From Candidatus Sericytochromatia bacterium (GTDB lineage Bacteria > Cyanobacteriota > Sericytochromatia > S15B-MN24 > UBA4093), in NCBI GenBank assembly GCA_036676985.1, contig JAKFBU010000056.1, forward strand, positions 64,001-128,000: 64,000 nt of DNA. Direction: 5' to 3'. This document shows, piece after piece, positions 21,175 to 54,456 of this stretch. Position 1 is the stretch's first letter; each line of letters starts with the position of its first letter. Both the position numbers and the translations under genes were made by a program. The notes under the pieces were generated by a model. That model saw only the letters and a list, made by a program, of their open reading frames with translations. It did no database searches and had not been told where the DNA came from.

Positions 21175-22107
21175 TTACGGGTCCGGTCGCGCGGAGGGCT
21201 CGGTCTCGCCCGCCTCGGCGAGCTGGGCGAGCTTGCGCAGCCGATGGTTCACGGCGCTCTTGGAGATGGGCTCGCTGTGATACTCGGCCAGCTGCGCCAG
21301 GCTCGCGAACGGATGCTCCAGGCGCAGGACGGCCGTCTCTCGGAGCTCGTCGCTGAGGGTCCTCAGCACGCCGCGGGCCTGCAGGGACTCGATCTGGGCG
21401 ATCTGGGACTGGGCCGTCGACACCGTGCGATCGAGGTTCGCCGTCTCGCAGTTGACGGCGCGCTGAACGTTATTCTTGAGGTCGCGGCTGATGAGCAGCT
21501 CCTCGAGGGCCAAGAGGGCGGGTACGGCGCCCACCAGCGTGAGGAAGGTGGCGATGTCCTCGCTCTTCTTGACGTAGGCCGTCCAGTGCTGATGGCCCTG
21601 CCGCTGGTAGTGGCCCGCGCGGATGCCCTCGGCCTGCAAGAGGGAGACGATCCACGAGCTCACCTCGCCGGGGGCCGTAAACTCCATGTGGTAGGCGCGC
21701 TCGGGGTCCACCAGCGACCCGCAGCCGAGGAACGCCCCGCGCAGGAAGGCCCGCCTGCAGCAGGAGCGCTTCTGGATGGAGCGGTGGAGCTCCGAAAGGC
21801 TCATGGCACCGTCCAGCCCCTCCTCGGGCAGGGGCACCACCAGCCGAAAGTGGTTGAGCCGTCCGGTGCCGGCGCCGTTCTGGAGCTGGGGCGTAACGCC
21901 GAAGAGCTCCTTGACCAGCTTGAAGAGCAGGCGCGCCACGGCATAGTTTTCAACGGTCAGGACCAGGTCACGCTCGTCAGGGCGCTGCGTGACGGCCGCG
22001 CACACCGAGAGGAGGGCCAAGAGGAGGGCCTTTTGGCAGCAGGGCTTCCCGTGCTCCAGGTGCGCGAGCTGGGTCCGGACGTCCTGGGAGAAGGTCGGCG
22101 CGGTCAC
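21175..22107 (-). CDS. whiA: DNA-binding protein WhiA
   Basis: AFLRGAFLGCGSLVDPERAYHMEF, RAVNCETANLDRT, ISKSAVNHRLRKL; GTG start overlaps the yvcK stop. Confidence 0.93.
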   Translation of the reverse strand: MTAPTFSQDVRTQLAHLEHGKPCCQKALLLALLSVCAAVTQRPDERDLVLTVENYAVARLLFKLVKELFGVTPQLQNGAGTGRLNHFRLVVPLPEEGLDGAMSLSELHRSIQKRSCCRRAFLRGAFLGCGSLVDPERAYHMEFTAPGEVSSWIVSLLQAEGIRAGHYQRQGHQHWTAYVKKSEDIATFLTLVGAVPALLALEELLISRDLKNNVQRAVNCETANLDRTVSTAQSQIAQIESLQARGVLRTLSDELRETAVLRLEHPFASLAQLAEYHSEPISKSAVNHRLRKLAQLAEAGETEPSARPDP

Positions 22108-23420
22108 AGCCACCCCTTGGTCTTGGCCGAGAGCTCCGCCTCGACCGGAAACGGCAGGATCTTCGCCCCCGACTCCCGGCGCACGCGCAGGAGCCAGTCG
22201 ACGATGGCCCGAGAGAGCGCCTCGGGGTCGTGCCGGACCATGTCGCCCTCGTCCAGGAGCGGCGCCATCAGGACCTTGACGCCCAGCCCCACGCAAGTCT
22301 CGGGGTCGTAATCCACCGGATACTGACCCTTGACCTCGTACTTCTCGAGGAGGCGCTGGGGCAGGTCCTCGTTGACCAGGACGAACTGGACGATGTCCGG
22401 GCCCGCGAGCTGCTGCAGCGCCTTGACGTGATCCGAGACCTTGAAGTCGTCCGTCTCGCCCGGCTGGGTCATGACGTTGCAGATGTAGAGACGGGGCGCG
22501 CGGCTGGACAACAGGGCGTCCGTCAGCTCGGGGATGAGCAAGTTGGGCGCAATCGAGGTGTAGAGGCTGCCCGGGCCGATGATGATGGCGTCCGCCTCCT
22601 GAATGGCGCGGACGGCCTCGGGCAGGGCGGCCGGTTCCTCGGGCTCGCAGCGCACGGCCGCGATCCGGCCCTTGCTCTCGGTGATCTGGGACTCGCCGCG
22701 CACGATGGTGCCGTCCTCGAGCAGGGCCACGAGCTCCAGGGGCACGAGGGTCGCCGGCAGGACCTGGCCGCGAACCGCCAGAACGCGGCTCGAGGCGCGG
22801 ATCGCCTGCTCGAGATCGCCCGTGATGTCGGCCATGGCCGTCAAGAAGAGGTTGCCGAAGGAGTGACCGAGCAAGGTCGTGCCCGCCTTGAAGCGGTAGT
22901 CGAAGAGCTTGGTCATGAGCTCTTCTTCGCCGGACAGGGCCGTCAGGCAGTGGCGGATGTCGCCCGGGGGCAGCACGCCCAGCTCCTCGCGAAGGCGTCC
23001 GCTGGAGCCGCCGTTGTCCGCCATGGCGACGATGGCCGTGATGTTGTCCGAGTACTCCTTGAGGCCGCGCAGGAGCGTCGCGAGGCCGGTGCCCCCGCCG
23101 ATGGCCACGAGCTTGGGGCCGCGCTTGCTACGCTGGCGGTAAAAGGCATCCAGCAGGCGGGGCGGGGCGGGGTGCAGGACGCGCACCACCTCGCGCAGCA
23201 GGCGCCGGGCGCCGAGGGCCGTGAGGACCATGCCCATCAGGACGCAAAAGATGCCGATGGTGGGCAGCTCCCAGGTCGTCGAGCGGCCGCGGATCTCGCG
23301 CACGAAGTAGTAGGTGAGCGCGATGACCCCGCCGTTGACGGTGAGCAGGCCCATGACCGACAGGAAGAGCCAGCGCTTGATCCCCATTCCCGGTGTCAGC
23401 CACCGGAAGAGCGTATGCAT
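22104..23420 (-). CDS. yvcK: Gluconeogenesis factor YvcK / UDP-GlcNAc-binding protein with two N-terminal TM helices
   Basis: WLTPGMGIKRW N-terminus; AIGGGTGL, DNGGSSGRLR, PPGDIR, GHSFGNL, GPGSLYTS, CNVMTQPGET. Confidence 0.93.
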   Translation of the reverse strand: MHTLFRWLTPGMGIKRWLFLSVMGLLTVNGGVIALTYYFVREIRGRSTTWELPTIGIFCVLMGMVLTALGARRLLREVVRVLHPAPPRLLDAFYRQRSKRGPKLVAIGGGTGLATLLRGLKEYSDNITAIVAMADNGGSSGRLREELGVLPPGDIRHCLTALSGEEELMTKLFDYRFKAGTTLLGHSFGNLFLTAMADITGDLEQAIRASSRVLAVRGQVLPATLVPLELVALLEDGTIVRGESQITESKGRIAAVRCEPEEPAALPEAVRAIQEADAIIIGPGSLYTSIAPNLLIPELTDALLSSRAPRLYICNVMTQPGETDDFKVSDHVKALQQLAGPDIVQFVLVNEDLPQRLLEKYEVKGQYPVDYDPETCVGLGVKVLMAPLLDEGDMVRHDPEALSRAIVDWLLRVRRESGAKILPFPVEAELSAKTKGWL

Positions 23421-23427
23421 CCTCACG

Positions 23428-24327
23428 CTAGACCCGGCTCGGCTCCGCACCGTAGTACTCGGCCTGGCGGTCGATGTCGCGGTGCTCCTCGAGCACCGAG
23501 TACCCGTGGTTCTTGAGGTAGCCCGCCAGGTAGCGCGTGATGGCCACCGAGCGGTGGCGGCCGCCGGTGCAGCCGATGCCGATCGCCAGATGCGTCTTGC
23601 CCTCCTTGCGGTAGTGGGGCAAGAGGAACGACGCCAGGTCCAAGAACCGCTCCAGGAACTCGAGGGTGACGGGGTGGGTCAAGACGAAGTCCTGGACCTG
23701 CTCGTGGAGGCCCGTGAAGGGGCGCAGCTCGGGGTCGTAGTGGGGGTTGGGCAGGAAGCGCACGTCGAAGACGAGGTCCGCATCCATGGGCGGGCCGAAC
23801 TTGAAGCCGAAGCTCTTGACGGTGATCTGCATGGAGGCTTCGACCTGGTCGGTCTGGATGAAGCTCGCGATGAGCTTCTCCTTGAGCTGCTTGGAGGTGA
23901 GGTCGGAGGTGTCGATGATGACGTCGGCGGCCGCCCGGATCTCGGCGAGCCGCTCGCGCTCCTGCTTGATCGACTCCATCAGGGTGGACTCGCCCCACAG
24001 CGGGTGGCGCCGGCGCGTCTCGCTGAAGCGCGTGAGCAGCACGTTGTCGGAGGCCTCGAGGAAGACGACCTTGGTGGGGTAGCCCATGGGCTTGAGCTGC
24101 TCCATGACGCCCGTGAGGTCATCCAGGAAGCTGCCGCCGCGAGAGTCCATGACCACCGCGATCTGGCGCATGCGCGGGTAGGTCAGCTCGATGAACTGCG
24201 GCAACAGGGGCGGGATCAGGTTGTCGACGCACAGGAAGCCCATGTCCTCGAAGCAGCGGATCGCGAGGCTCTTGCCGGCGCCGGAGAGCCCGGTGATGAC
24301 GAAGATGGCGTTTTGTCGGGCGCTCAA
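23428..24327 (-). CDS. rapZ: RNase adapter / P-loop nucleotide-binding protein RapZ (YvcJ)
   Basis: ITGLSGAGKS, ETRRRHPL, SFGFKFG, DVRFLPNPHY, IGCTGGRHRSV; TTG start after GGGAGG. Confidence 0.95.
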   Translation of the reverse strand: MSARQNAIFVITGLSGAGKSLAIRCFEDMGFLCVDNLIPPLLPQFIELTYPRMRQIAVVMDSRGGSFLDDLTGVMEQLKPMGYPTKVVFLEASDNVLLTRFSETRRRHPLWGESTLMESIKQERERLAEIRAAADVIIDTSDLTSKQLKEKLIASFIQTDQVEASMQITVKSFGFKFGPPMDADLVFDVRFLPNPHYDPELRPFTGLHEQVQDFVLTHPVTLEFLERFLDLASFLLPHYRKEGKTHLAIGIGCTGGRHRSVAITRYLAGYLKNHGYSVLEEHRDIDRQAEYYGAEPSRV

Positions 24328-24377
24328 GGGCGACCTCCCTGTAGTCGGGCAATGCTGCCATGGGGACGAAGCGGCTC

Positions 24378-24386
24378 ATTATACCA
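24378..24386 (-). promoter_or_regulatory. Extended -10 promoter candidate for rapZ-yvcK-whiA
   Basis: Minus strand TGGTATAAT. Confidence 0.6.
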
Positions 24387-24485
24387 TACCCCGTTCCGCG
24401 CCGGAGGCCGCGTTGGGCCTGCCTGGAGGACCGCCGGAGGGGCTGAATTTTTGTTAGACTGAGGGGTCCCCTTTTGGAGGAAGCC

Positions 24486-25280
24486 ATGCGGCCCAAGCTC
24501 ATCGCCACCGATCTCGACGGAACCCTGTTCGGACGCGACCTGACGGTCTCCGAGCGCAACAAGCGCGCCGTGCGGCTCGCCCATGACGCCGGCATCCCCG
24601 TGGTCATGGCCACGGGCCGCATGTTCAAGGCGACCGTGCCCTATGCCCGGGAGTGCGGCATCACCACGCCGCTCATCAACTACCAGGGCGCCCTCATCCG
24701 GGACCATCAGACCCAGGAGGACCTCTGGCACCGCACCATCCCGCTCGATCTCGCCCATGAGGCGCTCGAGGCGCTGTTCGAGACGGGGCTGCACGTGAAC
24801 CTCTACGTGAACGACGAGCTGCTCATCGACCGGCACACGCCCGAGGCGGAGCTGTACTGCAGCGTCGCGCGCGTCGAGCCGCGGCTCATCCCGTCCCTGG
24901 CCGAGGGGCTCACCATGGAGCCCACCAAGATCGTGGCCATCGGCACCGTCGAGCAGGTGCGGCACTGGGTGCCCGCGCTGCAGGAGCGCTTCGACACCCG
25001 GCTCTACGTGACGGAGTCCATCCCCATCTTCCTCGAGATCGCCAACCCGACCATCCGCAAGAGCGTGGCCCTGGCGCACGTGGCAGAACGCCTGGGCGTG
25101 CGGCCGGAGGAGATCGTGGCCATCGGCGACGGCATGAACGACCTGGACATGCTGCAGTTCGCGGGGCTGGGCGTGGCCATGGGCAACGCGCCGGCTCCGG
25201 TCAAGGAGGCGGCCGATCGCGTGACCAAGCCCGTCACCGAGGACGGGTTCGCGGCGGTGCTCGAAGAGCTGCTCAACTAG
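24486..25280 (+). CDS. Cof-type HAD-IIB family hydrolase
   Basis: DLDGTL, ATGR, GDGMNDLDML, GVAMGNA; GGAGG RBS. Confidence 0.93.
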   Translation: MRPKLIATDLDGTLFGRDLTVSERNKRAVRLAHDAGIPVVMATGRMFKATVPYARECGITTPLINYQGALIRDHQTQEDLWHRTIPLDLAHEALEALFETGLHVNLYVNDELLIDRHTPEAELYCSVARVEPRLIPSLAEGLTMEPTKIVAIGTVEQVRHWVPALQERFDTRLYVTESIPIFLEIANPTIRKSVALAHVAERLGVRPEEIVAIGDGMNDLDMLQFAGLGVAMGNAPAPVKEAADRVTKPVTEDGFAAVLEELLN

Positions 25281-25373: not shown

Positions 25374-25727
25374 CTAGTACCGCTTCGACTTCCGCTGCTG
25401 CGTGATGCGGACGTCGACGGTCTGCTGCTCTTGGTTGCTGTCGATGTTGATGCCGTTCTGCTGGTTCAAGCTGAAGATGGTGGTGGCGCTGTTGGACTGG
25501 GAGATCGCGCTGTTGGCGTTCCCGGAATTGTTCTGCGTGGCCGCATTGCTCTGCGTGGTCGTGGTGGTCACGGTGACGTTGCCAACCGCGTTGGTCTGCG
25601 CGGCGTTGACGTTGGTCCGGCTGCCGCCCGACCGTCCCTGGATGTCCGCCTGCTGCGTGGGCAGCGACGCGCAACCCGTCATAAAGGACGCGATCGCAAG
25701 CGCACTCAGAAGCTTCGTGGAAATCAT
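25374..25727 (-). CDS. Small Gln/Asn/Ser/Thr-rich lipoprotein with Q-x-N repeats (amyloid-like candidate)
   Basis: Lipobox MTGC; GAGGAAGG RBS; five QxN motifs (QTN, QSN, QNN, QSN, QQN). Confidence 0.8.
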   Translation of the reverse strand: MISTKLLSALAIASFMTGCASLPTQQADIQGRSGGSRTNVNAAQTNAVGNVTVTTTTTQSNAATQNNSGNANSAISQSNSATTIFSLNQQNGINIDSNQEQQTVDVRITQQRKSKRY

Positions 25728-26103
25728 GGCACCTTCCTCTTTCTCTCTCTCTGGTTCCGGCAGCCAACGACTGGCCGCTCAAGAATGGGTTAACCATAGG
25801 CGATCACCCCCGGACGATCGAACATCCAAACATCAAAACACGCTTGGTCGGTTGAGACGGCTGCGCCCAGCCCCCCGGCAACAACGGGTTCAAACGGCCT
25901 AGCTGCACGGGGGGAGGCCGGACCGTGCCCGGTCCGACCGTGCAAGCAAGCAAGCTGGGGGGGCCTCCTTCCGGAAGCCCGATCAAAATCTTGGTCCGTT
26001 CGATCATTCCGACATCATCGAGCGCCTCCTATCCTTGAAGCACGGTTGGGCGGTTGAGCATGAGGCCAACCCTCAATCTTCAGAGAGGGAGGACCAACAA
26101 ACC

Positions 26104-26868
26104 ATGAATCGCGCGATACTCTGGAGCACCCTGGCGCTGTCGGTGGCGACCGGCAGCGGCTGCGGCGCCGCCCCACCTTCGGTCACCACCGGCAGCCAGG
26201 CCGCCTTCATGTCCGGCGGCAGATCGGCCCCCAAGGCTGAAGTCCGACCTGCGGCCCTGGCCCCGGCCCCCAGCAACCGGGGCCTGAACTTCATCCAGGA
26301 CAACTACCTGGGGGACACGCAGGCCTTTACCGGCTCGAGCGTCTCGGTCCAGCAGACCAACCAGGTCACCACCCTGCTGCTCGACGACCCCAAGGACATC
26401 CTCAAGTACTACGCAGAGCTCCCGGTCCAGGTGCTATGGGACATCACCACCCGCGACTTCTACGTGACCCAGGCGAACCTGGTGGACGGCGTCGTGAGCT
26501 ACTCCGAAGCGGGGCTGGTCCAGCTCAACAAGGTGCTCATCATCGTCGACCCCAACGCCACTTACTACAACGGCACGATCGTGCAGCTGAACGCCGCCGA
26601 CTCGGCCACCGCCCATGAGGGCAGCCAGCTGGCGATCGATCAGCTCAACGACATCACCGTCATCCAGCGGGACGAGGACGCCCCGGACTCCGACGACTTC
26701 GTCGCCGCCCTGCGCGGCTCCGAGAACGTCCCCTTGTCGAGCGCCGCCGTGCTGGCGCAGAAGAACCACCTGCTCATCTACATCGACGTCGCGGGCCGCC
26801 CGCACTTCTACCAGTGGAAGCCCCCCACCGGAAAGAACGGCCTCTCCGGCTATCGCCGCAGGGGGTGA
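26104..26868 (+). CDS. Lipoprotein with seven Q-x-N repeats (beta-solenoid or amyloid partner candidate)
   Basis: GGGAGGA RBS before ATG 26104; signal peptide ending GSGC; QDN, QTN, QAN, QLN x3, QKN each flanked by alternating hydrophobic residues. Confidence 0.8.
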   Translation: MNRAILWSTLALSVATGSGCGAAPPSVTTGSQAAFMSGGRSAPKAEVRPAALAPAPSNRGLNFIQDNYLGDTQAFTGSSVSVQQTNQVTTLLLDDPKDILKYYAELPVQVLWDITTRDFYVTQANLVDGVVSYSEAGLVQLNKVLIIVDPNATYYNGTIVQLNAADSATAHEGSQLAIDQLNDITVIQRDEDAPDSDDFVAALRGSENVPLSSAAVLAQKNHLLIYIDVAGRPHFYQWKPPTGKNGLSGYRRRG

Positions 26869-26921: not shown

Positions 26922-28178
26922 CTAGCGGGTGCTCATCTGGACCGCGGCAAGCGCATCCACCACCCCGGCGCCGTACTGGGGATCCCTGCCCGTGGGGCCC
27001 GCATCCCGGGCGCTGCGAACGATCCAGTCCCGGAGCGTCTTGAGGGACGGCGGGCGGCTCGGCGTGATGAGCAATGCCGCAAGCCCGCTCACGTGCGGGG
27101 CGGCGGCGGAGGTACCTCCGAAGCGCCCGTAGCCTCCGACCGAGAGGGCCGGCACGTCGTCCGCGGGGGCCACCACCGTGAGCCAGGGGCCGTAGTTGGA
27201 ATAGGCGGCACGGCGATCGCCGCGATCCGTCGTGCCCACCGCCAGGAGCCCCTCGAAGCCGGTTTCGGCCGCCCATGCGGCCGGATAGTTCGCCACGGGG
27301 CGCCCGGAGATGTTGCCCGCCGCGCAGACGACCATGACGCCCTTCTCGAGGGCATAGGAGACGGCGCGCTGGAGGGTCTTGAGGCCGCCGGGCGTCAGGC
27401 CGTCCTCGCCCTCGGTGAAGCCGAGGCTCATGTTGATGACGTTGGCCTCGTGGTCGACCGCCCAGACGATGCCCGCGGCCGCGTCGGAGGCCCGCACGTG
27501 CCCCGAGTTCGGGACGTTGACCTTGACGGGCATCAGGCCCGCAAACGGGGCCACGCCGATGAGGCCCTCGCCGTTGTCGGCGACCGCCCCCACGATGCCC
27601 GCCGTGGCCGTCCCGTGGCCCATGTCGTCCATGGGCGGCTCGCCGGGCGACAGGATGTCCACGCCCCCCACGAGCTTGGGCGCGAGGTCCGGGTGCCCCA
27701 GATCCACGCCCGTGTCCAGGATGGCGACGACGGTCGAGCTCGCCCCGTCCCGCACGTCCCAGGCCTCGACCGTCCGCATGCGCGCCATGTCCCACTGCTC
27801 GGCGAGCATGGGGTCGGACGGAGCCTCGGTGATCGAGCGCGCGGTGTCGTGGATGGAGCCTGCCACGTCTCGCTCGACGTACTTGACGGCCGGATCCTTG
27901 GAAAGTCGGTGGAGATCCTGGGCCGAGGCGCCCGCGATCGCAAAGACGCCGCACCCGAGCCGCTCCATGGGCGTGACGAGGCGCAGACCATAGCGCTTGC
28001 CCATGGCCTGCAAGTCAGAGGCCGTCAGGCCGGGGGCCGAGACGATGACGCGCGGCGCTCCCGCCCTGGAGGCCGCTAGGAGCGAGCTCGTGGACCCGGC
28101 GGCCGTGAGCGGCACCGGGGCGCTGCAGCCGACCAGGCTCGAGGAGAGGAGGGCGAGGACGACAAGGCGGTTCTTCAT
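26922..28178 (-). CDS. S8 (subtilisin-like) serine peptidase, lipoprotein
   Basis: Lipobox LVGC; catalytic motifs AILDTG, GHGT, GGTSAAAPHVSG; VINMSLG; CAAGN. Confidence 0.93.
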   Translation of the reverse strand: MKNRLVVLALLSSSLVGCSAPVPLTAAGSTSSLLAASRAGAPRVIVSAPGLTASDLQAMGKRYGLRLVTPMERLGCGVFAIAGASAQDLHRLSKDPAVKYVERDVAGSIHDTARSITEAPSDPMLAEQWDMARMRTVEAWDVRDGASSTVVAILDTGVDLGHPDLAPKLVGGVDILSPGEPPMDDMGHGTATAGIVGAVADNGEGLIGVAPFAGLMPVKVNVPNSGHVRASDAAAGIVWAVDHEANVINMSLGFTEGEDGLTPGGLKTLQRAVSYALEKGVMVVCAAGNISGRPVANYPAAWAAETGFEGLLAVGTTDRGDRRAAYSNYGPWLTVVAPADDVPALSVGGYGRFGGTSAAAPHVSGLAALLITPSRPPSLKTLRDWIVRSARDAGPTGRDPQYGAGVVDALAAVQMSTR

Positions 28179-43761: not shown

Positions 43762-46700
43762 TCATCCAATCAAGTCGAGCGCGCACTGCAGGGCCAAAGA
43801 CCGCTCCGTGTCGGGGGGAATCAGGCTGAAGGCGCGCTGGAGGTGGGGCTTTGCCTTGTCGGGCTGGGAGACCCGCATCAGGCCGAGGCCGAGGTCCGCG
43901 TGGGCCTCGGCGTAATCGGGATCGAGCACCAGGGCCTGGCCGAAGGCGGCGAGCGCCTCGTCCTGCTGGCCGAGGGCCAGGTAGACCGTTCCCATGGCAT
44001 GGTAGTACGCCGCCTTGGGCGCGTGGTAGATGGCGCTCGTGAGGGCCTTCTTGGCGAGGTCAAGGTCGCCCAGGTCCCTCGCCAGGCGGCCCATGGTGTA
44101 GTGGGCCTCGGCGTGCTGGGGCTGCAGGGCGATGACGTCGGCGCAAGCCTCCAGGGCCGCCCGCCGCTCCATCATCTGCTCGTGGGCCCAGGCGAGCATC
44201 ATGAGCGCCTCGGTGTTCTGCGGCTCCACGTCCAGCAGGTCGTAGGCGCGCTTGAGCGTCTCGGGCGGGTTGTGGCGATCGCGCCCCAGGTGCATGAGGG
44301 CCCGCAGGCTCGGCACGTGGCGCGGGTCCAGGGCGACGATGCGCAGCAACGGCCCTTCGGCCGAGCGCAGGTCCCCGCGCTGGCGGTGGATGTCCGCGAG
44401 GATGTGGGCGGTCTCCAGGTCCTTGGGGTCCGCGTCGAGGATCTTGGCGTAGGTGTCGGCCGCCCCGGACAGGTGGCCCACGGTGACCTGCGCGCGGGCC
44501 ATCTTGCGCAGCAGCTCCACGTCCGAGCGATCCTGCTGCCACGCGAGCTGCCACCACTGGATGGCCGCGGGGAAGTCGCCCTCGGCGCTGGAGCGCTCGG
44601 CGAAGGCCAAGGTCAGCTTGCGGAACAGGGACAGGGCCGCCTCGTCGTTCGGGCGGGCGTTGAGGGCCTCCTGCAGGTGGGTCCATGCGGGTTCCAGCTC
44701 GCTCGCGTCCCAGGCGAGCTCCGCGAGGGCGAGCCTGGCGTCGAAGTGGCCGGGCTCCTGCTCGAGGATGCCGTGGTAGATGCGCCGGGCGCCCTCGAGG
44801 TCGCCGGACTGGCGGTGGATCTCGCCCAAGAGGAAGGCGGCCTCGCGATCGCCCGGATCGGCCTGCAAGAGGGCCGAGAGCACGCCGATGGCCTCGGCCT
44901 TGCGGCCCGCCTGGTAGAAGGTGTCGGCGAGGCGCCGCCGGGCGGCCATGTCGTCCGGATCCAGCTGCACGATCTCCCCACAGAAGGCGATGGCCTCGCT
45001 CCATTTCTGCTTGGAGGCATGCATGTCGGCGAGCCGCTCGGCACAGGCCTTGGCGAGCGCGACGTACTCGGCGTGTTCCGCCTCCCCCTCCGTGAGGGTC
45101 GCCGCGCGCTTGAGAGGCTCCCAGGCCTCGGCGAGCTCGCCCTCGGCCATCAGCAACCGGCCGAGGCCGACCAGGCTCAGCAAATCGTCCGGAGCGATCG
45201 CGAGCGCGTCCCGGTAGTGGCCGGCGGCAATCGGTGGCTCGTCGAGGCCGAGCGCCACGATGGCGAGGGCCTGATGCGTGGCGAGGTGAGCGGGATCCGC
45301 GTCGCGTAGCTCCGTGAAGCAGACCCGGGCCTCGTCCCAGAACCCGCCCATGGCCGCGATCTCGCCGTGCCGGAACTTGACGTCGGGGTCGCCCTCCTTG
45401 AGCCGCACCAGCTCGCGGTGGATGCCCACGGCCTCGGCGAAGCGGCCCGCCTTGACGTAGGCCTCGCCCAGATTGGTGAGGGCCTCGACCTCGTCCGCGG
45501 CGAAGCTGAGGAGCAGCTCCCAGTAGAGGATGGCGCTCTCCCAGTCCCCGGCCTCGGTGGCCTCGTGCGCCAACAGGCGCGCGCAGCGACCGATGAGCTC
45601 CATGGCCCGCGGGTTCTTGTTGTCGAGCTTCAACAGCTCCTGGCCGAGCTCCCAGACGCCCTGGATGTCCCCCTCTTCCCAGGCCATCTCGGAGAGGGCG
45701 AAGCGGCTATCGACATGCTTCGGGTCCTCGGCGAGCACCGAGTGGAAGACCTCGCGGGCGCCCTCGCGATCGCCCTGGCGCAGCAGCACCCGGCCCAGCT
45801 GCCACCCGGCCTCGGTGCTGGCAGGCGAGAGCTCGCGGGCATGGGCGAGGGCCTCGACCGCCTCCGCCAGGCGTTCGAGGTCGGCGAGCGCACGTCCCTG
45901 GGCGATCCATGCGTCCACGTCCTCGGGCACGTGCGCCAGGTAGCGCTCGCGCCACGCGATGGCCTCGGCCGGGTCCGCCACGGACTCCGCTAGCTGGTAG
46001 GCGGCCTCCTGGGCCAGGTGCTCCGCCTCGGCATTCTCCTCGGCCTCCTGGACCTTGAGCGCCCAGTCCCAAGAGGACCGGTAGTCTTCCAGCCGTGCGA
46101 AGACGTTGGCGAGCGTGAGGGCGGCCGTCAGGTCCCCGTGATCGGTGGCAAGGCGCTCGTACGGCACTTTCGCCAGGTCGAAGTGGTCGCCCGCGAGTGC
46201 CGTCGAGCCCCAGGTCTTGAGCAAGGCGGGCTCGAAGCCCGTGGCTTCTGCGAGCCGGCGGTAGTAGTCGCAAGCCTCCCGGTGGCGATCCTCGCGCCGG
46301 CAGAGGTCGGCGAGCCGCCTCAGGATCACCGGATGGGCCGGCTCCTGCACGAGGGCCCGCTCCCACCACTGGATGGCCGCCTCGTGATCCCCCTGGTCGC
46401 TCTCGAGGGTGGCGAGCGCGTGGGCCGCAGCCAAGGGGCGGTGCGTCGCCCACAGCTCCTCGAGCGCCGTCCGGGCCTCGTCGGGCGACGGATACGAGCG
46501 CGAGAGCTGGATGCCCTCGTCGAGGGCCTCCGGATGGGCGATCAGGAGGCGGCGATAGCGGGAGGAGGCGATCGCCTGCCGTCCGGCATCGCGCGCGAGC
46601 TCCGCCTGGAAGCGCATGAGGTCGAAGGTCGGAGCCTGGTAGGCGACGAGCAGGTCCGCGTAGAGGAAGGCCTGGTCGAAATCCCGCCGGAGCCTGGCGG

Positions 46701-49700
46701 CCTCGGCGAGCTGGCGCGCGCAGTAGGCGGCGAGCAACCGGGCCCGATCGGCCTCCGGGCTGTCCCCGATGGCGAGCACGCGCTGGCAGTACTCGCCGGC
46801 CATGACGAACTCGCCCCGGGACTGGGCCGAGCGCGCGAGGGCCATGAGGGCCACCGGGTGCGCGGGGTGCTCGTCGAGCACCTCGCGGAAGAGGTGCTCG
46901 GCCCGCTCTGCCTCGCCCGTGCGCAGGAGGCACTCGGCGAGGATCGCCTTGGCATCCGGCCAGTCGGGCGCCTCCTTCAGCAGGGCCTCCAGGTGCTCGA
47001 TGGCCCCGTCCAGGTCCCCGAGGGACATCTCGGCTCGCGCGACGCCGAGGCGCGCCTCCGCGTCATGGGGCGCGAAGCCCAGCACCTGCAACCAGGCCTG
47101 GCGCGACTCGGCCGGGGTCTCGGCGGGGTCGAGCGATCGCGCCTGCGCCGTGGCCACGCGGCGGGCGAAGTCGTCAGCCCCCTCTGCCTCCTTGGCGAGC
47201 AGCGCCTCGGCGACCTCGACGGCCTCGGCAAGGTCGCCCGTCGCGAGGGCCAGATCGCCCAACTGCCTCCAGGCGCCGAGATGGTCGAACTCGCGCGTGA
47301 GCGACTGGAGGATGGCCTTGGCCTCCACGTGGCGCCGGTTGGCGAGCAAGAGCTCCGCCATGGCGAGCAGGTCCTCGGGTTCGGGCTGCTGTTTGGCCAT
47401 GGCGAACAGGCTCGAGAGGGCCTCCTCCGGCCGTTCCAGGTGGCGCAGCAGGCGGGCCGCCGCGCGCAAGGCCTCCGGCTCGTCGGGCAAGGCTTTGAGC
47501 AGGTGCTTCCACCAGGCCAGGGCCTCCGCATGGCGGCCGCGTTCCTCGGCGGCCAGAGCGAGGGTCCGGGCGAGGTCCCGGGCCCTGGGCGAACCGAGGG
47601 CACCCGGGTGGGTCTCGAGGACGGCCGCGAGCTCGCGCTCGGCGGCCTCGAGCTGACCCTGCCGGAGGTTGAGATCCGCCAGCTCCAGGCGCGGCAACAG
47701 GGCGTCAGGCTGGTCCTCCACCAGACGATTGAGGATCTCCCGGGCCTGGGCCAGATGCCCGAGGCGGCGCTCGAGGCGCGCCATGACGAGCCGCGCGAGG
47801 GCATGATCGGGACGGGCCTTGAGGATGGCCGCGAGGGCCTTCTGGGCGCCTGCGACGTCACCCTGCTCGGCGGCATGCTCGGCGATGACGGCGAAGGCCT
47901 CGGCGTCGCCCGCTGCGAGCGGCAGGAGCTTGCGGGCCCAGCCCGCCGCCTCCGAGCCCATGCCCGCCCCGTGCAGGGCGAGCATCAGGTGGCGCATGGC
48001 CCCCACGTCCTGGGGCGCGAGCTCCACGACGCGCGCCCACCACGACGCCCCTTCGGGCGTCAGGCCCGCCAGCTCGGCCTGGCTGCGGGCATGGGCCAAG
48101 GCCCGCATCTTGGCCTCACCATGCCCGGCATCCGCCTCCAGGAGGCGCATGGCCCACTGGAAGGCCTCGGCATGGGCGTTCCGTTCCGCCGCCTCGTCCA
48201 GGAGGGCCTGGCAGACGGCGGCCGTGCGCTCGCCCAGATCGAAGGCCTTGCGGTAGGCTGCCATGGCCTCGTCGTGCCGAGCGAGCCGCTCGAGGCACTC
48301 CGCCTGGAGGATCCACACCCGGGGATCCTCGGGGGCGAGCTCGCGGGCCCGCGCAACCCAGGGCATGGCGTCGTCGGCACGCTCACCGCTCGCTCCTGCG
48401 AGGCACAGCTCCAGCTGGGCGGAATGGAAGACCTCGGGCTCGCCCATGCGCTGGGTAAGCTCAGACAGTGCCAGCCACTCGGCCTCTGTGTCGCCCTCGG
48501 CATGGGCCAGGCGCCGGCGCATGCCCCAGACGGCCGCCTCATCCGGATCCTGGGCCTCGATGACCTCGATCCAGCGGCGGGCCCCCGCGTGATCGCCCAG
48601 GTTCAGGCAGGTATCGACGAGGGGCAGCAGCGCCTGCTTCAGGCCGGCCTCCGCCGCCTGCTCGAGGAGGTATCGAGCCCCCGAGTAGTCGCCTTCGGCA
48701 AGGCGCTGTTCACCCAGCGCCAGCGCGCTGGCCGTGTCGGTCGGATCGCTCTCGACGAGCTGCTCGAGGGCCTGCAGGACCTCCGTCTGGCGGTTGAGCT
48801 CGTTGGCGAGGCGCACCACGTGGCGAAGGGCATCGTCGTCGTCCGGCAAGAGGGCCGCGAGCTTCTGCCACCAGGCGAGGGCCTCGGCACCCGAGGCCTC
48901 GTACGCGAGGCTGCGCACGATGTCGGCCAGGAGGGCGAGGGCACGGGCATGGGCGGGCTCTTCCTCGAGCAGGTCGTCCAGCATGGCGGCGGCCGCCGCG
49001 AGCTGACCGGTCTCGGCCAGGATCTCGGCGTGCTCGATGGTGAACCATGCGTTGGCGCCCAGGATCCGCTGGGCCCGCTGGAACCAGACGAGCGCCTCGG
49101 CCAGGGAGCCCTCCTCCCTAAGCAGGCATGCGAGCGCCACCATGGCATGGGCGTCGTCCATGCTCGCCGCCGTGGCGTAGGCAGCCTTGGCGTCGAGGGG
49201 CCGGCCCTCGCGCAGGGCGCGGTGGCCGAGCAGGGTGTGGGCGGCGCCGGGCAGGTCCGCATCGGTGGGGTCCAGGGCGAGGGCGCGATCCAGCCACTCG
49301 CCGGATCCCGCCTGCAGGGGGGCCCAGGCGAGGCTCAGGCGTACCATGCGCAGGGTTGCGGCATCCGCGGGCCCCAGGTGCGGCTCGAGCTCTGCGAGCG
49401 CTTCCCACGCGGCCTCGGGGTCCGAAGCGGCGAGCGCGATGGCGAAGCGCACGCGCTTGACCGCGGGGCTACCAGCCGCCTCGGGAGACTGCTGGAGGTG
49501 GGCCGACAGCCAGTGCTGGGCCGCCTCGGCGTCTCCCGATTGGGCACAGGCCTCGCTGGCGGCCAGATAGACCCGCGCCATGCCGGCTTGGGCCGCCCGC
49601 TCCAGGAGGGCGCGCGCCTCGCGACCACGCCCGGCGGAAAGCCAGCGCAGGCCAAGGGCCTCGGCCCCCGAGACGTCCTCCGGGTCCCGGACCACCAGCT

Positions 49701-52700
49701 CCTGCATGGCGCGGTCCTGGACGTCCTGGCGCCCGAGCTCGGCTGCGAGCGCCGCGAGGGCGCGCCATGCCTCTAGGTCGTCGGGCGCGAGCTGCGTCAG
49801 TTCGCGCCGCCAGTGCAGGGCCTCGCTGCCGGTGGCCTCCTGGATCATGCGCCGCAGGCAGGCTACGAGGCGCTCCTTGGCGGCGGCATGGGCGTCGTGG
49901 CCCCGCAGGAAGCTCACCAGGAGCTCGTAGGCCTCGGCCAGGTGGCCGTCGGCCATCAAGACGTCCGCGAGCTCCAGCGGCAAGGCCTCGTCCGAGGGCA
50001 AGAAGGCCATGGCCCTTGCGAGCCAGCCCGCTGCGGCCGCCAGGTCGCCCTCGCCCCGCGCCATGCGCGCGAGGGCCGTCATGGCCGTGGGGTCCTGGAC
50101 CTCAGCCGCCCACAGGAAGGCCTGCCGCGCGTCGTCCTGCTTCCCCTGCGCCTGCCAGTGGAAGCCCAGGGCTGCGATCGCTTGCCCCGGCACCTCGTTG
50201 GGCCGCAGGCCGATGGAGTAGGCGCGCTCGATCCAGCGCATGGCCTCCGCGGGTTCCGGCCCCCGCATGCGGTCGACGGCGAGCGCCAGGCGCTCGGTTC
50301 GGACGGCCTCGTCCCCCGGCTTGAGGTCGGCGAGCGCCGCGAGCGTCTCCCAGGCGTACTCGGCGTCTGAGGCCGCCCGGGCGATGGCCGCCCCGAGCTC
50401 CGCGGCCTTGAGGTCGCGCGCCCCGTAGCGCGCGAGGTGCTCCCGTGCCGCGGCGACCTCACCCGCCTTCAGGGCCAGGTCGGCCAGGTACCAGTTCGCC
50501 TCCGTGAAGCCCTGCTCGGCCGCCCGGCCCAGGAGCGGGCGCGCCGCCTCGGCCTCGCCCAGGGCATGGTGATGCATGCCGAGCGTCAGGGCGCTCATGC
50601 CGTCCGAGGGGTCTACCCGGACGATCCGCTCCAGGGCCGCCCGCGAGACCGCCTCGTCTCCGAGGGCCAAGGCCTCGCGCATGGCCTCCCGGTGCGCCTC
50701 GACGTCCTCCGGATCGGCCTCCGAGAGCAGGCGCCAGCACTCCAAGGCCTCTTCGCCCGCGCTCGCGCGCGCGATGCCGCGCAGCACCAGGGCTCTCAGG
50801 GCCCGGGCGCGGGGGTGGTCAGGCTGGAAGGTTTGCACGCGCTCGACGGCCGTGCGCGCCGCCCGGACCATGCCGGCCTCGAACTGCGTCTCGGCAAGCT
50901 CCAGCCAGAGAGCCGGGTCGTCGGGGAGCCGCTCCAGGGCCTTGGTGAGCCATGCCGCCGACTGCGGCAGGTCCCCTTCCCGGCGCGAGATCTGCGCGAG
51001 GGCCTTGAGTGCCGCTGGGTCTCCGCCCTGCGCGGCGATGCCGAACGCGTTGCGGGCCTTTTCGAGGTGGCCCTCGGCCTGGTAATAGGCGCCGAGCTCG
51101 CTCGCGAGGCCCATGTGGTGGGGGGCCCGATCCAGGACCGCCTCGAGCACGCTGGCCGCGCGCGGCAGGTCCCCCTGCTGTCGCAGGAGACCGGCGAGCG
51201 TCACCTGCAGGTCCACGTCCTCGGGGTCGAGGGCGACGACCTCCTCCCACCAGGGCAGGACCTCGGAGACCTCGAGCCGCCCGGCGAGGTCGCGCAGGAG
51301 GCGGTAAGCGGTCTGCCGGACGGCGCGATCGCCCGGCGCGCCCTCCAGGAGGGCTTTGAGGTGGCGCCAGGTCTCGGGACCGTCGGCCTGCTCGGCGGAG
51401 AGCTCGGCGAGCGCCATGCGGGCCTGCGGATCCGAGGGTGCATAGCCCAGGACGCGCTCGAACTCGGACCGAGCGCGCGCGCGGTTCCCCATGCGCAGGT
51501 GCAGGCGTCCCGCGAGCACGCCAGCTGCCGGCAGCTCGGCAGCCATGAGGGGGGCGAGCGCCTTGAGGGCAGCGTCGGGCTGCCCGCCCTTGCTCAAGAG
51601 CTCGGCGAGCATCAGGGCGGCACGCTCGCAGGTGGGGTCGATGGCGAGGATCTGCTGGAGGTAGAGCGCCGCCTGGACCTCGTTCTGCTCGTCCAGGTAG
51701 ACCTCGGCGAGGGCGAAGCGCGCCTCGACGTCGCGCGGCTCCAGTTTCAGGAGCTCCTCGAAGATGGGGATGGCCGCGGGCCCGGTCGAGGTCTCGGCCA
51801 GGCGGCGGGCCACCTTGCTCGCCAGATCCCGAACCCGGGGGGTCTCGTACAGCTCCAGGGGCAGGGCCCGGACCTGGTTCCAGGCCTCACGGAAGTTCTT
51901 CTCGACCAGGGCGAGCTCCGCAAGGCCCAACAGCGCCTTGGGGTCGGCCGGGTTGGTGGCTAGGACGCCCTCGAACAAGGCCCTCGCTCGCTCGAGGTCC
52001 TGCTCGCGCAGGGCGATCTGGCCCGCGAGCACGCCCCCCAGGGGGTGCTGGAGCACGCCCGGCGTGTCGAGGTGGCGCATGGCCTCCTCGACCTGCCCCC
52101 CGTCGAAGGCCTGCTGGGCCAGGAAGACCCGCGCCTCGATGTCCGCCGGGTCCGCCTTGAGGACCTCCGCAAAGGCCTTGGCCGCCTCGGTGGGTGCGGT
52201 GGCCCGGCGGGCGGCCGTCTTGGCGAGGGCCTTGAGGGCGTCCGGGTCCTCGGGATCCAGGACGAGCACCTGCTCCCACCAGCCCAGGGCCACGTCGTCG
52301 AACGTGCTCGCCGCGAGGCGCTTGAGGATGGGCAGGGCGACGCCCTTGGCCTCCTTGTGGTCGGGGTTCTGGGCGAGCACCCGCTTCAAGAGCTCCCAGG
52401 CCCCCGCGTCGTCGCCCTTGGCGCTCGCTTGCTGCGCCATGGCCAAAGACGCCGGGAGGTGGTCCTTCTCGAGCGCGAGGATCCGGCCGAAGAGGCGCAG
52501 GGCCTCGTCGTCGTTCCCTTCCCCCGCGGCCGACTTCGCCAGGCCGTGCAGGGCCTCGAGGTTGTTCGGCCTGAGCTCGAGCACGGCCTCGAAGTACTCG
52601 CGGGCCTCCGAGAACAGGCCCTCTTCGAGCTCGTTGTTGCCGAGCCAGAGGGCTGTTTCGATGTCGGTCGAGTGGCGGCGGAACCAGGCCCGGTAGGAGA

Positions 52701-54456
52701 GGACCGCGCCGTTCAGGTCCCCTACGGCGATCTGGGCCGCCGCGAGGCGTTTGCGAGCAGGCGAGTCAGAGTCGAAGGTGACGTGCCGGTTCCACCAGGC
52801 GACGGCCTCGGCGTAGTTGCCTTCCTGCTCATGCTGCTCGGCGATCGCAGCAGACACCTTGGCCTGGGTCGGCTTGAGCTTGGGATGGTTGGGGTCCAGG
52901 CGGCCGAAGCGCTCGCACTCGGACCAGGCCCGCTGGATCTTGTGGGCGCCCAGGGACAGGCCGATGAGGTGCAGGAGGCCCTCGGCGGTCTCTCCTTCGC
53001 GCGCCATGAGGGCCGTGTAGGCCTCGTGCCCTTCGGCGTACATCTCCGCGGCGTCGCAGGCGGCCGCCAGCTCCCGCAGGAGATCCATCTTCTTGTAGCG
53101 ATCGGGCAGGGCGCGCAGGACGCGCACGGCGTCCGCGCCCCGGTGGATCTGGCGGTAGAGGATGGCGGCGGCCCGGGCCGCGGTCTCGTCCTGGGCGTTG
53201 CAGCTCAGCGCCCGCTCCCACCACTTGAGGGCCTCGACCGGATTGTCCCCCAGCTCCTCGGCCTTCATGACGGCCATGTTGCGGGCGAGGGACTTCGCCG
53301 TCTCGCCGTGCTCGGCGTCCTCGAAGAGCCCCTCGAAGAGGGACCACGCCTCCTCCTTCTGACCCTCGAGCACCTTGGCGCGCCCCACCTTCAAGCGCTC
53401 CTCGGCGGGCAGCTCCGCGAGGCTGCGGCCCAGCATCGTCAGGCTCTTGGCCTCGTGGCTGAGCCCCAGGTCGATGGCGACCTCGATGGCCTTCTGGCGG
53501 AGGGCCTCGTCGGGGTGCGTCGAGAGCACCTGCTTGTAGATGGCGAGCGCGTCCTGCTTGCGGCCGATGGCGAGCATGGCGTCGGCGAGACGCAGCACGG
53601 CGGCGGCGTCCTGGGGGTGGCGATCCGAGAAGCCTTCGAGCAGGCGCACCAGATCGCCCATGCGGCTCTGGGTGGTGTAGAGCCGCTCCAGGCGGCTCAG
53701 GGCCTCGGGGTCGTCGGGGGCGATCGCCAAGAGGCGCTCCCACCATTGGCTCGCCCTGGCGGCGTTGTTCGTCAGCTGGGCGTCGGAGGCCTGGCTCCGG
53801 CAGAGGGACAGGAGCGCCTCGCGCAGACCCGGGGCCTGCGGGGCACGACCGGCGACGGACTGGAGGATCTTCCAGGCCTCGTCGCCGCGGCCCATGCGGC
53901 CCTCGATGTCCGCGAGCAGCAGGTACCCCTGGATGGTGTTGGGTTCGAGGGCCAAGGCGTCGCGCAGGGGAATGGCGGCGTCGGCCGTGCGGCCCGCCCG
54001 CACCATGCGCTCGGCGAGGGCGAAGCGGGACTCGGCGTCCTTGGGATCCAGGGCCGCCAGGCGCTCGAGCATGGCGATCTCGCTGGCGACGTCGCCCTGC
54101 TGACGGTGGATCTCGATGAGCGCCCGCAGCGCGGGCTGGAAGGTGGCATCCAGGAAGAGGGCGCGCTGGAAGGTGCCGACCGCCTCGCCGAGGCGACCCT
54201 CGCGCGCGAGCAGGACGCCCAGGAGGTAGGCCCCGGGCAGGGAGTTGGGCTGGTCGTCGAGGAGGGTGCGCGCATGCGTCAGGGCCCCCGTCAGATCGCC
54301 CAGCTGGGCGAGGACTTCGGCGAGGGCGAGGCGCGCCTCGGCATAGCGCGCGTCATGCTCCAGGGCCTGCAGGTAGGCGTCGCGGGCGGACGCGAGATCG
54401 GCCCGATCCCTGTGCGCATGGCCTTCTTGATAGTGGGCGAGAGCCTTGGGGTGCAT
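43762..54456 (-). CDS. Giant (3564 aa) tetratricopeptide-repeat protein
   Basis: Single uninterrupted ORF, GGGAGG RBS, continuous TPR-like helix pairs with recurring A..WW...L...P.D.EA units. Confidence 0.9.

Follow-up and report, generated by a model that had tools for sequence, protein, structure and literature searches.

What kind of system do two divergent genes form when both encode predicted lipoproteins rich in Gln-x-Asn (QxN) motifs? The question is raised by positions 25374–26868 of a 64,000-nucleotide stretch (the window; contig JAKFBU010000056.1, positions 64,001 to 128,000) of Candidatus Sericytochromatia bacterium. A sequence-only reading had proposed a functional-amyloid or β-solenoid fibre system, in which the 117-amino-acid (aa) product, here P0001, polymerises and the 254-aa product, P0002, nucleates. 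We find that P0002 belongs to a narrowly distributed new repeat family, composed of β-repeat proteins with a Q/N core. For the pair as a whole we tentatively favour, with something short of even confidence, two membrane-tethered β-repeat proteins that dock onto one another and may co-assemble in the cell envelope; a secreted fibre is not indicated.

P0001 lies at 25374–25727 on the minus strand (stop codon 25374–25376) and is defined by its open reading frame (ORF), its translation and a match to A5, the profile of small proteins described below (E 6.3e-31). P0002 occupies 26104–26868 on the plus strand (stop codon 26866–26868), where the ATG at 26104 gives the 254-aa product; the ORF list begins at a TTG at 26035. 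The 376 bp divergent intergenic region between them (25728–26103) has no Rfam match, and a consensus scan finds no sigma-70-like promoter or terminator in it; a purine-rich, Shine-Dalgarno-like run can be read upstream of both genes. Each protein begins with a basic N-region and a hydrophobic stretch leading to a lipobox Cys (C19 in P0001, C20 in P0002). The lipobox Gly-Cys pair is invariant in all aligned homologs of both families (G19-C20 in P0002, G18-C19 in the small proteins), and by signal peptide and invariant Cys both are putative signal peptidase II lipoproteins. The earlier description of two head-to-head lipobox genes thus holds at these bounds, and the peptide strings quoted for them match the translations. 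Its statement that they have no recognisable family also stands: at permissive thresholds, neither protein has a family in Pfam, NCBIfam or PADLOC or a match among PDB chain sequences.

The QxN repeat family of the 254-residue protein

Mature P0002 contains exactly seven QxN motifs, as originally counted, against 0.83 expected, and none of 20000 composition-preserving shuffles reaches seven. Among the 129 lipobox ORFs scanned in the genome of the window (G000), a set that left out P0001 with its Lys in the signal peptide, P0002 has the highest QxN count, the next-best ORF having three. The enrichment extends to all eight other large-family members tested, which hold 5–9 motifs against 0.7–2.0 expected.

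The motifs are arranged along a modular chain, encoded throughout on the plus strand. The signal peptide with its lipobox (residues 1–20, 26104–26163), in which G19 and C20 are invariant in alignments A1 and A3, is followed by an Ala/Pro/Ser/Gly-rich tether (residues 21–58, 26164–26277) that is predicted to be disordered and is poorly conserved and variable in length across A3. Repeat unit 1 (residues 59–93, 26278–26382) carries Q65xN67 and Q84xN86 on strands 59–74 and 79–93, predicted at a local distance difference test score (pLDDT) >90. Unit 2 (residues 118–148, 26455–26547) carries Q123xN125 and Q140xN142, 17 residues apart, on strands 118–127 and 136–148, and unit 3 (residues 155–189, 26566–26670) carries Q161xN163 and Q180xN182, all four residues invariant, on strands 155–170 and 175–189. 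The imperfect unit 4 (residues 215–238, 26746–26817) has Q219xN221 on strand 215–227; its second strand (233–238) is short and without QxN, and the unit as a whole aligns to QxN strands of the homologs P0008, P0009 and P0010. A predicted disordered C-terminal tail (26818–26865; pLDDT <50 at 242–254) closes the protein with an Arg cluster at its end, and Arg-rich C-termini are also present in the large-family members P0004, P0005 and P0010.

Conservation of the motif in homologs of the 254-aa protein, on which the earlier proposal had been made to hang, is pronounced. In the nine-sequence alignment A3, whose members are 21–52% identical to P0002, the seven positions Q84, Q123, N142, Q161, N163, Q180 and N182 are invariant, the other invariant residues being M1 and the lipobox. 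Units were then taken as all QxN (or QxS) pairs exactly 19 residues apart in 11 large proteins, a rule that fixes the Q and N columns and leaves the remaining columns free. The resulting 26 units of 35 residues align gap-free (eight of them constitute alignment A6). Columns 5, 11, 14 and 16 in strand 1 and 22, 24, 30 and 32 in strand 2 are 62–96% hydrophobic, with columns 5, 11, 14, 22, 24, 30 and 32 at 73–96%. These columns are in phase (i, i+2) with the Q and N, alternate columns are polar or charged, and the five connecting columns are rich in N, D, S and G. The unit therefore consists of two amphipathic strands, with the central Gln and Asn on the apolar face. Inside a unit the Q-to-Q spacing is 19, falling to 17 in units that lack two residues of the turn; between units it ranges from 21 to 57, and the linkers between the P0002 units measure 6–25 aa. 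The two paired motifs that had been aligned by eye are accordingly real repeats of a 35-residue strand-turn-strand unit.

AlphaFold2 with nine sequences gives a model with a mean pLDDT of 73.3, a predicted template modelling (TM) score of 0.64 and 97 residues at or above 90, the five models spanning 70.1–73.3; with a 7-sequence alignment the prediction is poor (mean pLDDT 53.1) and its Foldseek search uninformative. The nine-sequence model shows eight long strands as four strand-turn-strand pairs, with short helices at 96–102 and 196–205. Predicted disorder is limited to residues 1–55 and 242–254, where the pLDDT is below 50, and to residues 208–213. P0002 is thus predicted to form a confident all-β core (pLDDT about 90) on a disordered tether of ~40 residues. 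The ESM Atlas provides no usable match for P0002 residues 55–254 or for P0010.

Foldseek against the PDB returns no significant neighbour of this model. FapC heads the non-significant list (E 0.04, probability 0.03, TM 0.07–0.09), which includes CsgA and spans E 0.04–0.98 and TM 0.07–0.16. The neighbours are almost all β-solenoids, namely FapC, the CsgA fibril, SufB/D, the CAP C-terminal domain and ice-binding proteins, together with pectate lyases, LpxD/GlmU, tapirin, Ag43 and putative adhesins. We treat the list as a hint of solenoid-like stacking of the predicted units, not as a test. The stacked arches anticipated by the sequence-only reading have in their favour the all-β prediction and the β-solenoid neighbours, FapC and CsgA among them, none of which is significant.

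The family is tiny and, within the genomes searched, confined to one bacterial family. A word-indexed search of 5.8 billion proteins yields two relatives, and an exhaustive profile search of 1.84 billion representatives yields eight matches at E up to 1e-3 (best E 1e-123), one of which, P0011, aligns by its signal peptide alone. Within a sample of the phylum, a single-protein search matches 5 of 201 genomes, all in the bacterial family of the window. Across the class, profile A3 matches 7 of 47 genomes: both genomes of the window's genus g1 (G000 and G076) and, among the other genera compared in the same bacterial family, three of three in g3, two of three in g4 and neither of two in g2. A scan with A1 finds no relative on metagenome contigs and only the congener on genome contigs, and a unit-profile search for longer or otherwise built repeat proteins returned just six known family members. 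No account of such a family was found in full-text literature, a search that did not cover supplements, which may hold lists.

The small partner and its linkage to the large gene

P0001, encoded on the minus strand, begins with a signal peptide and lipobox (residues 1–19, Cys19; 25671–25727), and a g3 homolog matches residues 2–38 at E 1.7e-5. In A5, the alignment of small proteins, M1, G18, C19, A20, P23 and T24 are invariant. The core (residues 38–95, 25443–25616) is Q/N/T/S-rich, contains five QxN and is not conserved; no charged residue occurs between R37 and D96, in agreement with the nearly uncharged core first described. Five QxN compare with 1.97 expected (p=0.024), and the enrichment is sharper when a preceding hydrophobic/T/A position is included (p=0.0005). 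The chain ends in a basic tail (residues 110–117, 25377–25400, read from the translation), and basic tails ending RY or RR are also present in the small proteins of g3, g4 and g2.

The counterparts vary widely between these fixed ends. The counterpart in the congener G076 has a Gly/Tyr-rich core, the small protein P0015 a Gly-rich core between two h-x-Q-x-N strands, and the g3 small proteins two and a half copies of longer Q/N-rich repeats; the G109 (g4) small protein has two clean copies of the unit, with the 19-residue Q spacing of the large protein. The small proteins retain the lipobox, a short motif following its Cys, at least one h-x-Q-x-N strand and the basic C-terminal tail. P0001 is predicted to be a tethered, mostly low-complexity chain in which no more than one or two QxN strands, themselves degenerate, are kept along with the basic tail. 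Its proposed role as the Q/N-ladder polymerising subunit is undercut by the replacement of this core with Gly/Tyr- or Gly-rich low complexity in close relatives.

Linkage of the two genes, also foreseen by the sequence-only reading, is complete among the genomes that hold the large gene: in 7 of 7, a gene for a small low-complexity predicted lipoprotein lies 78–376 bp away. The linkage spans three unrelated neighbourhoods and two orientations. In g1 the genes are divergent, with gaps of 376 bp (G000) and 369 bp (G076), between HAD and S8 genes. In g3 (G055, G112 and G124) they are in tandem, small gene first, with a gap of 78 bp in a neighbourhood other than that of g1. In g4 (G109 and G106) they are again in tandem, with gaps of 179 and 184 bp, between a tetratricopeptide repeat (TPR) gene and a gene that we take, from its sequence and without a tool result, to be mfd-like. 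The orthologous HAD and S8 genes of g2 overlap by 4 nt, with nothing between them. Judged by its three contexts and its absence between the g2 HAD and S8 genes, the pair therefore acts like a two-gene unit that has been moved and inverted.

Sequence kinship between the two proteins is clearest in G109, where BLASTP of the mature small against the large protein gives E 2e-4 with 32% identity over 74 aa, the small protein lying in register with two consecutive units of its large neighbour. A complex prediction of P0002 residues 55–254 with P0001 residues 20–117 scores 0.30 and 0.01 against a mark of 0.32 and, run without controls, counts neither way.

Several further genes were noted around the small proteins. 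At L038 2146–2676 (plus strand; G109, contig C109) lies an unlinked gene for a Gly-rich small predicted lipoprotein with the P0001-type N-terminal motif, convergent to and slightly overlapping a 719-aa gene. From its sequence, and with no Pfam confirmation, we take the 719-aa product to be a PAS-GGDEF-EAL protein; this arrangement may hint at a link to cyclic di-GMP control. Further low-complexity lipobox ORFs of G000 are located at C38:212512–212985 and C39:192170–192493, both on the minus strand; one is Gln-rich with short repeats, and the other is Gly/Tyr-rich with a basic tail containing Tyr, recalling P0001 and its congener. In g2, tandem genes at L039 1450–1845 and 1961–2449 (both plus strand; G043, contig C74) encode small predicted lipoproteins with NGNA-type repeats that end in RY like P0001; they were considered as curlin-like and rejected, with no Pfam match at E up to 10. 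In 3 of 3 g3 genomes the gene immediately downstream of the two encodes a 386-aa protein (L029 6861–8021, minus strand, in G055:C10). By eye it has a D-x-H-x-x-N-like stretch that we presume to recall small-molecule or protein kinases. Without a Pfam family and not found in G000, it was rejected as a part of the system.

Known β-repeat systems and the competing explanations

The pair appears to follow the same structural principle as curli and Fap, that is, repeats with conserved Q/N in the core, and by these comparisons to be a member of neither family. Passages of one account (PMC9172111) describe FapC as three repeats of ~37 aa with conserved Q/N and flexible linkers between them. P0002 has a Fap-type architecture of three to four 35-aa units with invariant Q/N and linkers of 6–25 aa, an architectural resemblance only; both have a few imperfect ~35–37-residue repeats with conserved Gln/Asn and linkers of variable length, and in both the products of the two linked genes have repeats that are related. 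In contrast to Fap, P0001 and P0002 are predicted lipoproteins, and there is no sequence match and no significant fold match: sequence searches of the PDB, run to E 10 in a library that includes the FapC chains listed by Foldseek, return no match. No fapA/D/E/F-like genes lie beside the pair in its three contexts; the genome was not searched with FapF or FapD models.

Curli offers a looser parallel: its repeats, too, are strand-turn-strand with inward-facing Q/N, and its major and minor proteins are likewise encoded side by side. The CsgB protein of curli is associated with the cell surface via a basic C-terminal repeat (PMC9172111). The curlin repeat, as set out in part of another account, has a length of 23 ± 5 aa, its N and Q placed at the strand ends (N-$-Psi-$-Psi-$-Q) and its strands joined by an X-G-X-X arc (PMC10192328), whereas the unit here spans 35 aa with Q-x-N mid-strand, flanked by hydrophobics. 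P0001 and P0002 also have a lipobox, which E. coli curlins as annotated lack. FapC is the closer architectural analogue of the two. A search with Curlin_rpt (PF07012) finds nothing at E up to 10 in P0001, P0002 and five homologs; extended to the complete genome with a limit of E 1 it is likewise empty, the E. coli control being positive. By hhalign, A3 against E. coli CsgA reaches a probability of 0.4%, and A5 against CsgB 0.5%. No csgEFG genes lie near the pair, which is surrounded by genes for a HAD hydrolase, an S8 protease, RapZ, a DEAD helicase and MotAB; CsgE and CsgF were not searched for. The sole CsgG-family match in G000 is weak (22.5 bits against a cut-off of 20.8), at C39:61065–61370 on the plus strand, inside a 499-aa frame on a different contig, unlinked to the pair. 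The relationship to Csg or Fap proteins envisaged in the original proposal thus finds no footing in Pfam, hhalign, PDB sequence or Foldseek comparisons.

Two other classes deserve comparison. Non-polymerising β-solenoid scaffolds, such as ice-binding proteins, pectate-lyase-like β-helices, SufD and putative adhesins, are likewise repeat-built and all-β and make up most of the Foldseek neighbours, but the unit length and QxN signature fit none of the matches, and no structural or sequence match is significant. Neither protein has an identified catalytic or known binding motif. The second class, amyloid signalling motif pairs, comprises cytoplasmic proteins with NLR and cell-death effector domains, whereas both partners here are predicted exported lipoproteins without such domains. 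The likeness is in neighbouring genes with a common short β-forming motif, suggesting templating between partners: as parts of two sources describe them, such pairs in fungi and filamentous bacteria are adjacent NLR and effector genes with a common short amyloid motif (bioRxiv 10.1101/2020.01.06.895854; PMC4344463).

We lean towards docking because of the QxN conservation, the repeat structure, the predicted fold, the Gly-Cys lipobox, the linkage in every genome with the large gene, the G109 kinship and the basic tails of both proteins. P0002 would be a stack of four ~35-residue strand-turn-strand units, hung from the membrane on a flexible ~40-residue tether. The invariant Gln and Asn, mid-strand on the hydrophobic face, would make up a polar stripe or ladder, either buried or at an interface, that keeps the units in register. 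The small protein, unable to fold alone, would add its QxN strand or strands to an open edge or end of the P0002 stack by β-augmentation. The outcome would be a hetero-assembly, anchored to the membrane, that plays a structural or adhesive part in the cell envelope. In each of the two proteins the basic tail may touch an anionic envelope polymer.

A number of observations weigh against docking. A direct interaction of P0001 with P0002 is putative. In 5 of 8 small proteins the profile of the 26 large-protein units fails to outscore composition-matched shuffles, which also tells against the interpretation first proposed; of 500 shuffles, 11 reach the score of P0001, 1 that of P0015 and 17 that of the G076 protein. 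The small genes adjoining the large gene are of two N-terminal types, and a P0001-type small gene in g4 is located elsewhere in the genome, unlinked to the large gene. G000 holds other low-complexity small lipobox proteins, so P0001 may be one of a general low-complexity class that is adjacent by chance. Judged without coordinates, the predicted units may pair as antiparallel hairpins, forming a sheet or sandwich, or may be arches stacked in parallel as a solenoid. The module is also missing from g2 (neither of two genomes, 96–100% complete) and from one of three g4 genomes, and is therefore dispensable.

Many of the same observations would fit two envelope lipoproteins that work independently, a possible explanation that we rate somewhat below docking. 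P0002 would then be a monomeric β-solenoid or β-sandwich scaffold, for example for binding or as a spacer, capped against polymerisation by its imperfect last unit and inserted helices; P0001 would be one of several intrinsically disordered, low-complexity lipoproteins, and adjacency would reflect co-regulation or history rather than direct stacking. The confident monomer fold, the two helices between units and the last unit's second strand without QxN agree with this, as do the non-conserved P0001 core, the other low-complexity lipoproteins of G000, the unlinked P0001-type gene of g4 and the failure of the unit profile to recognise most small proteins. β-Solenoids are moreover common in non-fibre proteins, and imperfect terminal motifs or blocking domains stop polymerisation, as parts of one source relate (PMC10192328). 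Independence accounts poorly for adjacency in all seven genomes, three contexts and two orientations, for the repeat-level similarity of the G109 small and large proteins, and for the h-x-Q-x-N motif and basic tail common to both proteins. A true functional amyloid, in which one protein nucleates and the other polymerises into cross-β Q/N-ladder fibres after lipoprotein export without CsgG- or FapF-type channels, is unlikely. It would be consistent with invariant Q/N at core-facing positions of repeated strand-turn-strand units, with two linked genes that have a common motif, as CsgA and CsgB do, and with the non-significant Foldseek list headed by FapC and including CsgA; three to four ~35-aa units with variable linkers also resemble FapC so far as passages of PMC9172111 describe it. 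Against it, all subunits would be lipid-anchored, an arrangement more in keeping with a patch on the surface than with a free fibre; the pair is unaccompanied by accessory or secretion genes; and the core of the protein cast as the polymerising subunit is not conserved. The last P0002 unit is imperfect as well, every test against curli or Fap proteins fails to reveal a relationship, and the family is confined to few genomes. P0002 itself, predicted to fold into an autonomous domain on its tether, does not resemble a subunit kept unfolded until assembly.

In a speculative and similarly unlikely variant, the pair would represent a third independent route to a bacterial functional amyloid-like polymer: a lipoprotein-anchored four-unit β-solenoid, having a Gln/Asn ladder at its centre, would serve as the template on which further QxN units, drawn from P0002 itself and from the small partner, stack into a membrane-tethered cross-β ribbon or patch in the envelope, with no need of a dedicated secretion channel. 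The remaining explanations are less probable still. An exposed Q/N stripe that acts as a flat binding surface for a ligand with a repeating structure (glycan, peptidoglycan, mineral or ice), in the manner of ice- and carbohydrate-binding β-helices, is highly improbable: ice-binding proteins, pectate lyases and putative adhesins are among the Foldseek neighbours, and soil and groundwater metagenomes are the source of the sequencing runs in which the sequence occurs, but no Foldseek match is significant and the phase of Q/N with the conserved hydrophobics argues for a buried or interface site over a solvent face. That one or both ORFs are not genes, by chance or as annotation artefacts, is scarcely credible even in a high-G+C genome with many long spurious ORFs overlapping real genes. 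Related genera conserve both ORFs, including the invariant lipobox and the N- and C-termini, and for P0002, whose family is recovered by profile search with E down to 1e-123 and whose structure is confidently predicted, this explanation is effectively refuted. Of the proposal from which the analysis started, the QxN conservation, the repeats, the linkage and a β-solenoid-like flavour survive, and the assignment of roles and the Csg/Fap kinship are not supported.

Genomic setting and significance

The genes around the pair are ordinary housekeeping genes. On one flank (21175–25280 of the window) are WhiA-like, YvcK-like, RapZ and Cof-type HAD hydrolase genes, in an order also kept in g2; Pfam confirmed RapZ and HAD only, and the whiA and yvcK names are our presumptive readings of the translations. 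The other flank holds genes for an S8 subtilase, a DEAD-box helicase and MotA/MotB. The S8 subtilase (26922–28178, minus strand), convergent to P0002, has its own lipobox, and its best NCBIfam match is the mycosin model at 192 bits against a cut-off of 279 bits. At E up to 1e-40, G000 holds 13 S8 paralogs, and every genome of the bacterial family holds 8–13. The protease was rejected as a part of the system: its g2 ortholog abuts the HAD gene without the pair, and G000 has its 13 paralogs. Farther along the window (43762–54456, minus strand) lies a 3564-aa ORF that consists essentially of tetratricopeptide repeats throughout, with no other domain found (TPR_19 at 2.1e-157 plus 21 more TPR-type Pfam families).

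G000 is 100% complete by marker genes; it has no photosystem reaction-centre (Photo_RC) protein, and MotAB is present. From the absence of Photo_RC and the presence of MotAB, we infer that the host belongs to a non-photosynthetic lineage of Cyanobacteriota. The sequencing runs in which the sequence is present are DNA only, with no RNA run listed. Among the differences listed for contigs of 4 runs (2 studies), none falls inside the P0001 ORF, contigs being a form of data that drops rare variants.

The large protein defines a repeat family without counterpart in Pfam, NCBIfam, PADLOC or the PDB. Its signature is very clean, an invariant Q-x-N in the middle of an amphipathic strand at a fixed 19-residue spacing, and the fold of P0002 is confidently predicted yet without a significant PDB neighbour. 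If P0002 is a capped monomeric scaffold, it would still represent a new fold family for an almost unstudied soil-bacterial lineage, of modest general interest. If the units stack as arches, the pair would be a new solution to the Q/N-ladder design of curli and Fap, lipid-anchored and paired with a motif-bearing partner. It would then widen the range of bacterial ways to build or template surface β-structures, and, at 200 plus 100 residues, would be a compact and tractable model in which to study templated β-stacking.

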